A DNA stretch of 64,000 nucleotides, from NCBI RefSeq assembly GCF_003334785.1, contig NZ_QOWV01000001.1. One strand, 5' to 3'. The notes beneath the pieces are model-generated. The model did no database searches and had not been told where the DNA came from. It worked only from the letters and a program-made list of their open reading frames with translations. This document shows, one piece after another, positions 13,592-13,859 of the stretch (within the stretch, counting starts at the first letter, position 1; each line of letters starts with the position of its first letter). The translations under genes were made by a program, and so were the position numbers. Origin of the DNA: Escherichia coli. Lineage in GTDB: Bacteria > Pseudomonadota > Gammaproteobacteria > Enterobacterales > Enterobacteriaceae.

Positions 13592-13859
13592 AATACTCTC
13601 TCCTGAATTTATGATTCACGGAAGTAAGCTCTCTATAACTATAATAGCTAAGAATAAGCCTGGTGAAATTATTCCGTGAAATCTGCTCGCGCGCAGGGTT
13701 ATATCACGCAGGTGATAATGACTTCCTGTTATATCGCTGATAATAATTTTATATCTTGAGAGTGTTAATAACAGGTAAATAGTCTTAATTATCAACCAGG
13801 AATCATCTTAGAGCGGATGATTTGCCAAACTGCAAATCATCCGTAGAGAAGGGAAATGG

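Follow-up and report, generated by a model that had tools for sequence, protein, structure and literature searches.

The inverted repeat downstream of yciT in Escherichia coli very probably serves as an RNA hairpin that defines the 3' end of the yciT mRNA. The repeat would be transcribed near the end of this mRNA, where it occupies the last 30 nt but four, and would fold into a 12-bp stem-loop that both defines and protects the 3' end of the transcript. Its most likely role is to block exonucleases, and any terminator activity would be weak at most. The yciT 3' end is already present in a public Term-seq table, and the hairpin is an un-annotated but ordinary instance of a well-known kind of element. 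A literature search found no paper discussing the yciT hairpin itself.

The yciT-osmB locus and its inverted repeat

The window, the 64,000-nt stretch of E. coli chromosome analysed here, carries pyrF (12124-12921) and yciH (12918-13247) on the plus strand and osmB (13373-13591, ATG at 13591), yciT (13860-14609), yciZ (14699-14881), and pdeR (15020-17005) on the minus strand. The yciT (deoT) coding sequence, taken from the ORF list, encodes a DeoR-family regulator and has its stop codon at 13860-13862. Gene order and annotation are identical in MG1655 (NC_000913.3), in which yciT (b1284) occupies 1343597-1344346, and window positions are obtained by subtracting 1329737 from the NC_000913.3 coordinate. 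yciT and osmB lie in tandem on the same strand with 268 bp between them.

The repeat, CGGATGATTTGC-CAAACT-GCAAATCATCCG, is located at 13814-13843 and consists of arms that are complementary at 12/12 positions, separated by a 6-nt spacer. A preliminary description of this DNA had given its sequence and perfection correctly but placed it at 13806-13835, and the true position is 8 bp rightward. The repeat was correctly described as lying just past the yciT stop; it begins 16 nt after the stop codon. It also lies upstream of osmB as had been claimed, although the distance to the ATG is 223-252 nt and not ~215 bp. Read on the minus strand, the yciT transcript ends in UAA-CCAUUUCCCUUCUCUA-CGGAUGAUUUGC-AGUUUG-GCAAAUCAUCCG-CUCUAAGAUGAUUCC. 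A 16-nt pyrimidine-rich spacer (CCAUUUCCCUUCUCUA, 13844-13859), which is not conserved between genera, leads from the stop codon to the stem. The stem-loop itself (13814-13843, minus strand) is composed of the 5' arm CGGAUGAUUUGC (13843-13832), the loop AGUUUG (13831-13826), and the 3' arm GCAAAUCAUCCG (13825-13814), with 12/12 perfect pairs.

Perfect hairpins of at least 12 bp with loops of 3-10 nt occur at two loci in the 64 kb, against a chance expectation of ~0.07 per window (the mean from first-order Markov resampling, 60 simulated sequences). The other locus, at 58531-58563, is ATATGCCTGATGGTGCAACACCATCAGGCATAT, which has a 15-bp stem and a 3-nt loop. Even a search tolerating three mismatches finds a single copy of the yciT repeat in the window. 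A 66-nt segment surrounding it is present in 5,421 of 5,426 complete E. coli genomes, as a rule once in each, and is identical in 4,476 E. coli records. As the repeat is as a rule single-copy it is not a dispersed repeat, and a REP-type reading was rejected on the same grounds (median of one place per genome). REP/BIME palindromes resemble it in being intergenic, in lying at the 3' end of a gene, and in that they can stabilise the upstream mRNA. However, the yciT repeat is single-copy, carries no REP consensus, and has a lineage-specific sequence. A search of 12800-15200 against Rfam at a permissive threshold returned no match at the repeat site.

Two independent IS1 events in the hairpin were observed in two E. 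coli strains. In strain FMU073332 (L084, 2440-2560) the IS1 junction falls at window 13819/13820 and osmB has been lost. In strain 23CRST031 (L087, 1480-1600 and 2240-2345) IS1 sits in the loop and right arm of the repeat, in the plus-strand view, with the duplication CTGCAAAT.

The mapped 3' end and the character of the hairpin

The hairpin has a folding energy of -18.1 kcal/mol alone and -19.2 kcal/mol within the 50-nt 3' UTR. In its 141-nt context the z-score is -3.7 and the hairpin dominates the fold. Curated Term-seq data (Adams et al. 2021, eLife 10:e62438, Supplementary file 1) list a 'primary' yciT 3' end at 1343547 on the minus strand, which two of the three condition sheets report, at 107065 and 37489 reads. 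The sequence column of this table contains 50 nt upstream, the 3' end, and 10 nt downstream, a layout that was checked on the thrL row. For yciT it reads ACCATTTCCCTTCTCTACGGATGATTTGCAGTTTGGCAAATCATCCGCTCT up to the end and AAGATGATTC beyond it. After coordinate conversion, the yciT transcript at steady state (...CAUCCG-CUCU-3') ends at 13810 on the minus strand, 4 nt past the stem, which results in a 3' UTR of 50 nt. The preliminary description had suggested that the repeat could be the yciT terminator and that this might be checked by 3'-end mapping. The Term-seq end at 13810 favours a 3'-end element.

The suggestion of a terminator is therefore upheld in part. A role at the 3' end is supported by the Term-seq data and the conserved hairpin, but the element is not a canonical intrinsic terminator because there is no U-tract. 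Like canonical terminators, it has a stable hairpin close behind the stop codon, a stem base of three G-C/C-G pairs, and an adjacent RNA 3' end. It differs in its tail (CUCUAAGA / CUCUAAGAUG), which contains two U in the first 8 nt where a U-rich tract of 7-8 nt is expected, in a stem of 50% G+C, and in an RNA end that is 4 rather than 7-9 nt away. A consensus terminator scan of the window did not call the yciT hairpin. The same scan did call the terminator at 13253-13278, between the convergent yciH and osmB, which provides an in-window contrast to the hairpin without a U-tract. This terminator, AAAGCCACGGATATATCCGTGGCTTT, is canonical and bidirectional-looking, with T/A runs on both sides.

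In intrinsic termination the RNA is released 7-9 nt past the stem and a U-rich hybrid is needed. As the yciT RNA ends at +4, after CUCU, its end is best explained by exonucleolytic trimming. The 3'->5' exonucleases PNPase and RNase II would trim the transcript back to the stem, giving the observed end. Two routes by which the polymerase itself may stop are given roughly equal probability. It may stop a few nucleotides further on, through weak, non-canonical hairpin-induced termination at CUCUAAGAU, or it may continue further downstream, to be stopped by Rho or by the osmB terminator at 13253-13278.

Exonuclease-protected ends of this type are known in E. coli, where Dar & Sorek 2018 (NAR 46:6797) described 3' ends located just past stable stem-loops without U-rich tails. 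The yciT hairpin matches these protective stem-loops in its stability, in the lack of a U-rich stretch, in a folding energy within the range of intrinsic terminators, and in a precise 3' end directly downstream, at 4 nt in the case of yciT. It departs from the Rho-dependent type of Dar & Sorek, in which the downstream RNA is C-rich, whereas at yciT it is AU-rich and both Rho dependence and trimming by PNPase/RNase II are putative. The 100 nt past the hairpin contain 16% C with a C/G ratio of 1.23, which makes this segment a poor rut candidate. The 1078 bicyclomycin-sensitive regions tabulated by Adams et al. 2021, an admittedly incomplete list, include neither yciT nor osmB. This absence and the composition of the downstream RNA argue against Rho acting at yciT, just as the composition of the tail argues against efficient intrinsic termination. 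Among other transcript-end resources, the TERMITe supplement does not mention yciT and the SMRT-Cappable-seq supplements list neither yciT nor osmB.

Conservation of the hairpin across Enterobacteriaceae

Among 80 yciT loci collected from assemblies of Enterobacteriaceae and their relatives, 78 have osmB downstream of yciT at a distance of 236-301 nt and in the same orientation. The stretch from the yciT stop to the RcsB box of osmB could be delimited in 76 loci, all of which contain a stable hairpin there. These hairpins have a median folding energy of -16.2 kcal/mol and a median z-score of -3.9 relative to shuffled sequences, with z < -2 in 91%, and lie a median of 9 nt from the stop codon. 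The hairpin past yciT is still present in one locus that has no osmB-like ORF downstream (L024), and therefore goes with yciT and not with osmB. Entomohabitans (L077) is an exception lineage in which there is no room for a hairpin.

The sequence of the stem is not maintained in the same way. At least six unrelated stem sequences occupy this position across genera. Escherichia, Citrobacter, and Salmonella share the stem GATGATTTGCC/GGCAAATCATC, Enterobacter and Lelliottia have GCGCCCG.../...CGGGCGC, and Kosakonia and Phytobacter have AGCCCGC.../...GCGGGCT. The stem reads ACCCGATGC... in Kluyvera and GTCCGGTACG... in Trabulsiella, and further types occur in Atlantibacter, Franconibacter, and Cedecea. 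Most lineages have C/U-rich tails past the stem, as in E. coli. A true U-run is limited to a handful of lineages, such as Leclercia (GGGCGUUUUUU) and Cedecea/Enterobacter sp. (GGGCUUUUU), and the equivalent hairpin of Leclercia, Cedecea, and some Enterobacter shares this one feature with canonical intrinsic terminators. In an alignment of the intergenic region from 26 genera, all columns from the yciT stop to the RcsB box stay below 90% identity. Long invariant blocks, belonging to the osmB promoter region, are found from the RcsB box onward. In terms of the conservation check that had been proposed for the palindrome, the hairpin structure is kept in 76/76 analysable loci and the sequence is not kept across genera. 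Judged from this sequence comparison, a structure that is kept while its sequence is replaced is the expected signature of an RNA hairpin and not of a protein-binding site.

Pairing was also counted within the group sharing the E. coli stem, using 22 sequences from Escherichia, Citrobacter, and Salmonella in a gapless 32-column alignment with both strands scored. Paired cells make up 91.3% of the total on the yciT-sense strand and 86.0% on its complement. At pair 3-30, nine sequences have A-U and eight have G-C, and in one case U-A has replaced C-G. One-sided changes in the ten core pairs yield G.U in 12/13 cases on the yciT-sense strand versus 1/13 on the opposite strand. This wobble asymmetry traces back to perhaps four or five independent substitutions, and two variants run counter to it, 13825 C>T in O157:H7 and locus L003. 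The asymmetry is suggestive of selection on the yciT RNA and is treated as supporting only; it was rejected as proof of RNA-level selection owing to the few independent events and the two counter-examples. The stem core GATGATTTGC shows little or no variation among the three genera, a conservation that appears somewhat greater than pairing alone would demand.

Alternative readings and the osmB regulatory region

The hairpin borders the regulatory region of osmB. The RcsB box of osmBp1, TAAGATGATTCCTG (13797-13810, minus strand), is a neighbour of the hairpin and not part of it, lying 3 nt from the base of the stem, and the mapped yciT 3' end at 13810 is the first nucleotide of the box. It fits the consensus TN(G/A)GAN4TC(T/C)NA at all specified positions but the last and is conserved in the 76 Enterobacteriaceae loci. 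In Salmonella the orthologous box is TAAGACTTTTCTGA, which spans -73 to -59 relative to the osmB TSS and was shown by EMSA to bind RcsB~P (PMC7913699). The positions of osmBp1 and osmBp2 used here derive from conservation, the Salmonella TSS, and SELEX papers. These place the start of osmBp1 near 13733-13739, based on the conserved -10 TAAAAT (13751-13746) or on the SELEX-proposed promoter TTAACA-17-TATTAT, which would put the palindrome at roughly -76 to -105. As a by-product of its role at the yciT 3' end, the hairpin would form the boundary of the yciT transcription unit with the RcsB-activated osmBp1 promoter, which begins 3 nt later.

Several further features were observed in the osmB upstream region. 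Invariant blocks occur at 13771-13788 and at about 13722-13739; TTAAGACTATTTACCTGT lies between the RcsB box and the -35 region, and AGCGATATAACAGGAAGT lies at and past the inferred P1 start. A direct repeat, GATATAAC, occurs twice, 30 nt apart, at 13728-13735 and 13698-13705 (minus strand). The osmB leader also contains a perfect 9-bp inverted repeat on the minus strand, in which TTCACGGAA (13680-13672) pairs with TTCCGTGAA (13623-13615), 48 nt apart. This repeat brackets the sigma-S promoter osmBp2, and both arms would occur only in P1 transcripts. Across 26 genera 95.2% of cells pair. Both-sided changes are seen in five cells, from C-G to U-A in four sequences and from G-C to A-U in one, and all 13 one-sided changes that preserve standard pairing give G.U on the osmB-sense strand. 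The covariation score was reached by 0/500 shuffles, and the helix has no Rfam entry. The repeat could form a conserved helix specific to P1-derived osmB mRNA, and it looks more interesting than the yciT hairpin.

Of the alternatives to a simple 3'-end hairpin, a leaky and possibly regulated terminator is unlikely. Read-through across such an element would couple yciT to osmB, either tuning osmB from the yciT promoter or insulating osmBp1. The tandem arrangement on one strand, with 268 bp between the genes in E. coli and retained in 78/80 loci, is consistent with this, and the missing U-tract predicts incomplete termination. RNA-seq by Gao et al. 2021 found osmB to be upregulated in a yciT deletion strain (log2 1.83, 3.6-fold), with no YciT ChIP-exo site at osmB. 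This rise could result from altered read-through across the hairpin in the deletion construct, or from an indirect effect. The 3' arm can also pair with the downstream GAUGAUU (13807-13801). However, this alternative pairing reaches -6.7 kcal/mol, against -19 for the hairpin, and it needs the variable N4 of the RcsB box, which is different in Citrobacter and Salmonella. An antiterminator-like role for the pairing was rejected on account of this weak energy.

A dual role is quite improbable. Here the repeat would form the RNA end of yciT and would also control transcription into the RcsB-dependent osmBp1 region, either in the form of duplex DNA or by acting as a leaky, regulated terminator. Such a role would account for the stem GATGATTTGCC being almost unchanged across Escherichia, Citrobacter, and Salmonella. 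If true, it would connect osmB with the osmolarity-related regulator YciT and explain the rise in osmB upon deletion of yciT.

The preliminary description had also proposed an operator in the osmB upstream region, and this proposal is not supported. It is very unlikely that a dimeric factor, whether YciT, RcsB, or another protein, binds the palindrome as a DNA operator at -76 to -105 of osmBp1 and modulates osmB. The palindrome is a perfect dyad, the GATGATTTGC half-sites have a constant 6-bp spacing in Escherichia, Citrobacter, and Salmonella, and the increase of osmB upon yciT deletion (Gao 2021 supplement) would also fit an operator. However, Enterobacter, Kosakonia, Kluyvera, Leclercia, Cedecea, and others have unrelated GC-rich hairpins in its place and yet keep the RcsB box and the osmB promoter blocks, so the sequence of the palindrome is not conserved wherever the promoter is. 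Furthermore, one-sided substitutions break the DNA dyad while keeping G.U pairs in the RNA.

For YciT, the one factor for which in vivo occupancy of the palindrome was tested, the 49 ChIP-exo sites reported by Gao et al. 2021 do not include it. The nearest site lies upstream of pdeR (gmr), at window 17133-17163. This site contains GTTTTCAAACGAAAGTC, a TTTC-N4-GAAA dyad. TTTC-N4/5-GAAA is common to five of nine YciT peaks extracted from NC_000913.3 (ybiO, ompX, yfcV, sixA, and pdeR), and TTTC-N4-GAAA is a likely YciT half-site pattern, although the motif is our own reading of a few peaks and not a published logo. It is absent from the repeat, and a YciT operator was rejected on both counts.

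RcsB was considered since the palindrome is 3 bp from the RcsB box and RGATGATT, present in each arm, resembles the left half and spacer of the E. coli osmB box TAAGATGATTCC. However, both arms fail the TC(T/C) half of the consensus, whose central base is required for binding, and the spacing of the RGA/TCC elements in the palindrome is 22 bp instead of 4. An RcsB site within the repeat was rejected, as the arms read (A/G)CGGATGATTTGC(A/C), in which TTG replaces TC(T/C), and the adjacent 14-mer at 13810-13797 is the real box.

That the palindrome is functionless, arising by chance or left behind by a local duplication around the RcsB box, is highly improbable. A duplication is hinted at by AATCATC, which occurs at both 13801-13807 and 13835-13841 with its complement at 13816-13822. 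However, only ~0.07 such hairpins are expected per window, the hairpin is maintained in 76/76 analysable loci, and a mapped RNA 3' end coincides with it.

With the repeat read as the 3'-terminal hairpin of the yciT mRNA, its meaning is mostly one of annotation, in that yciT gains a defined 3' end and a 50-nt 3' UTR. The hairpin also shows how far upstream the osmB regulatory region extends, given that the RcsB box begins 3 nt past the stem. When yciT is deleted or engineered, loss or separation of the hairpin could alter both the stability of the yciT mRNA and the transcription that enters osmB. More broadly, it adds one more terminal stem-loop without a U-tract, conserved in structure but not in sequence across a bacterial family.
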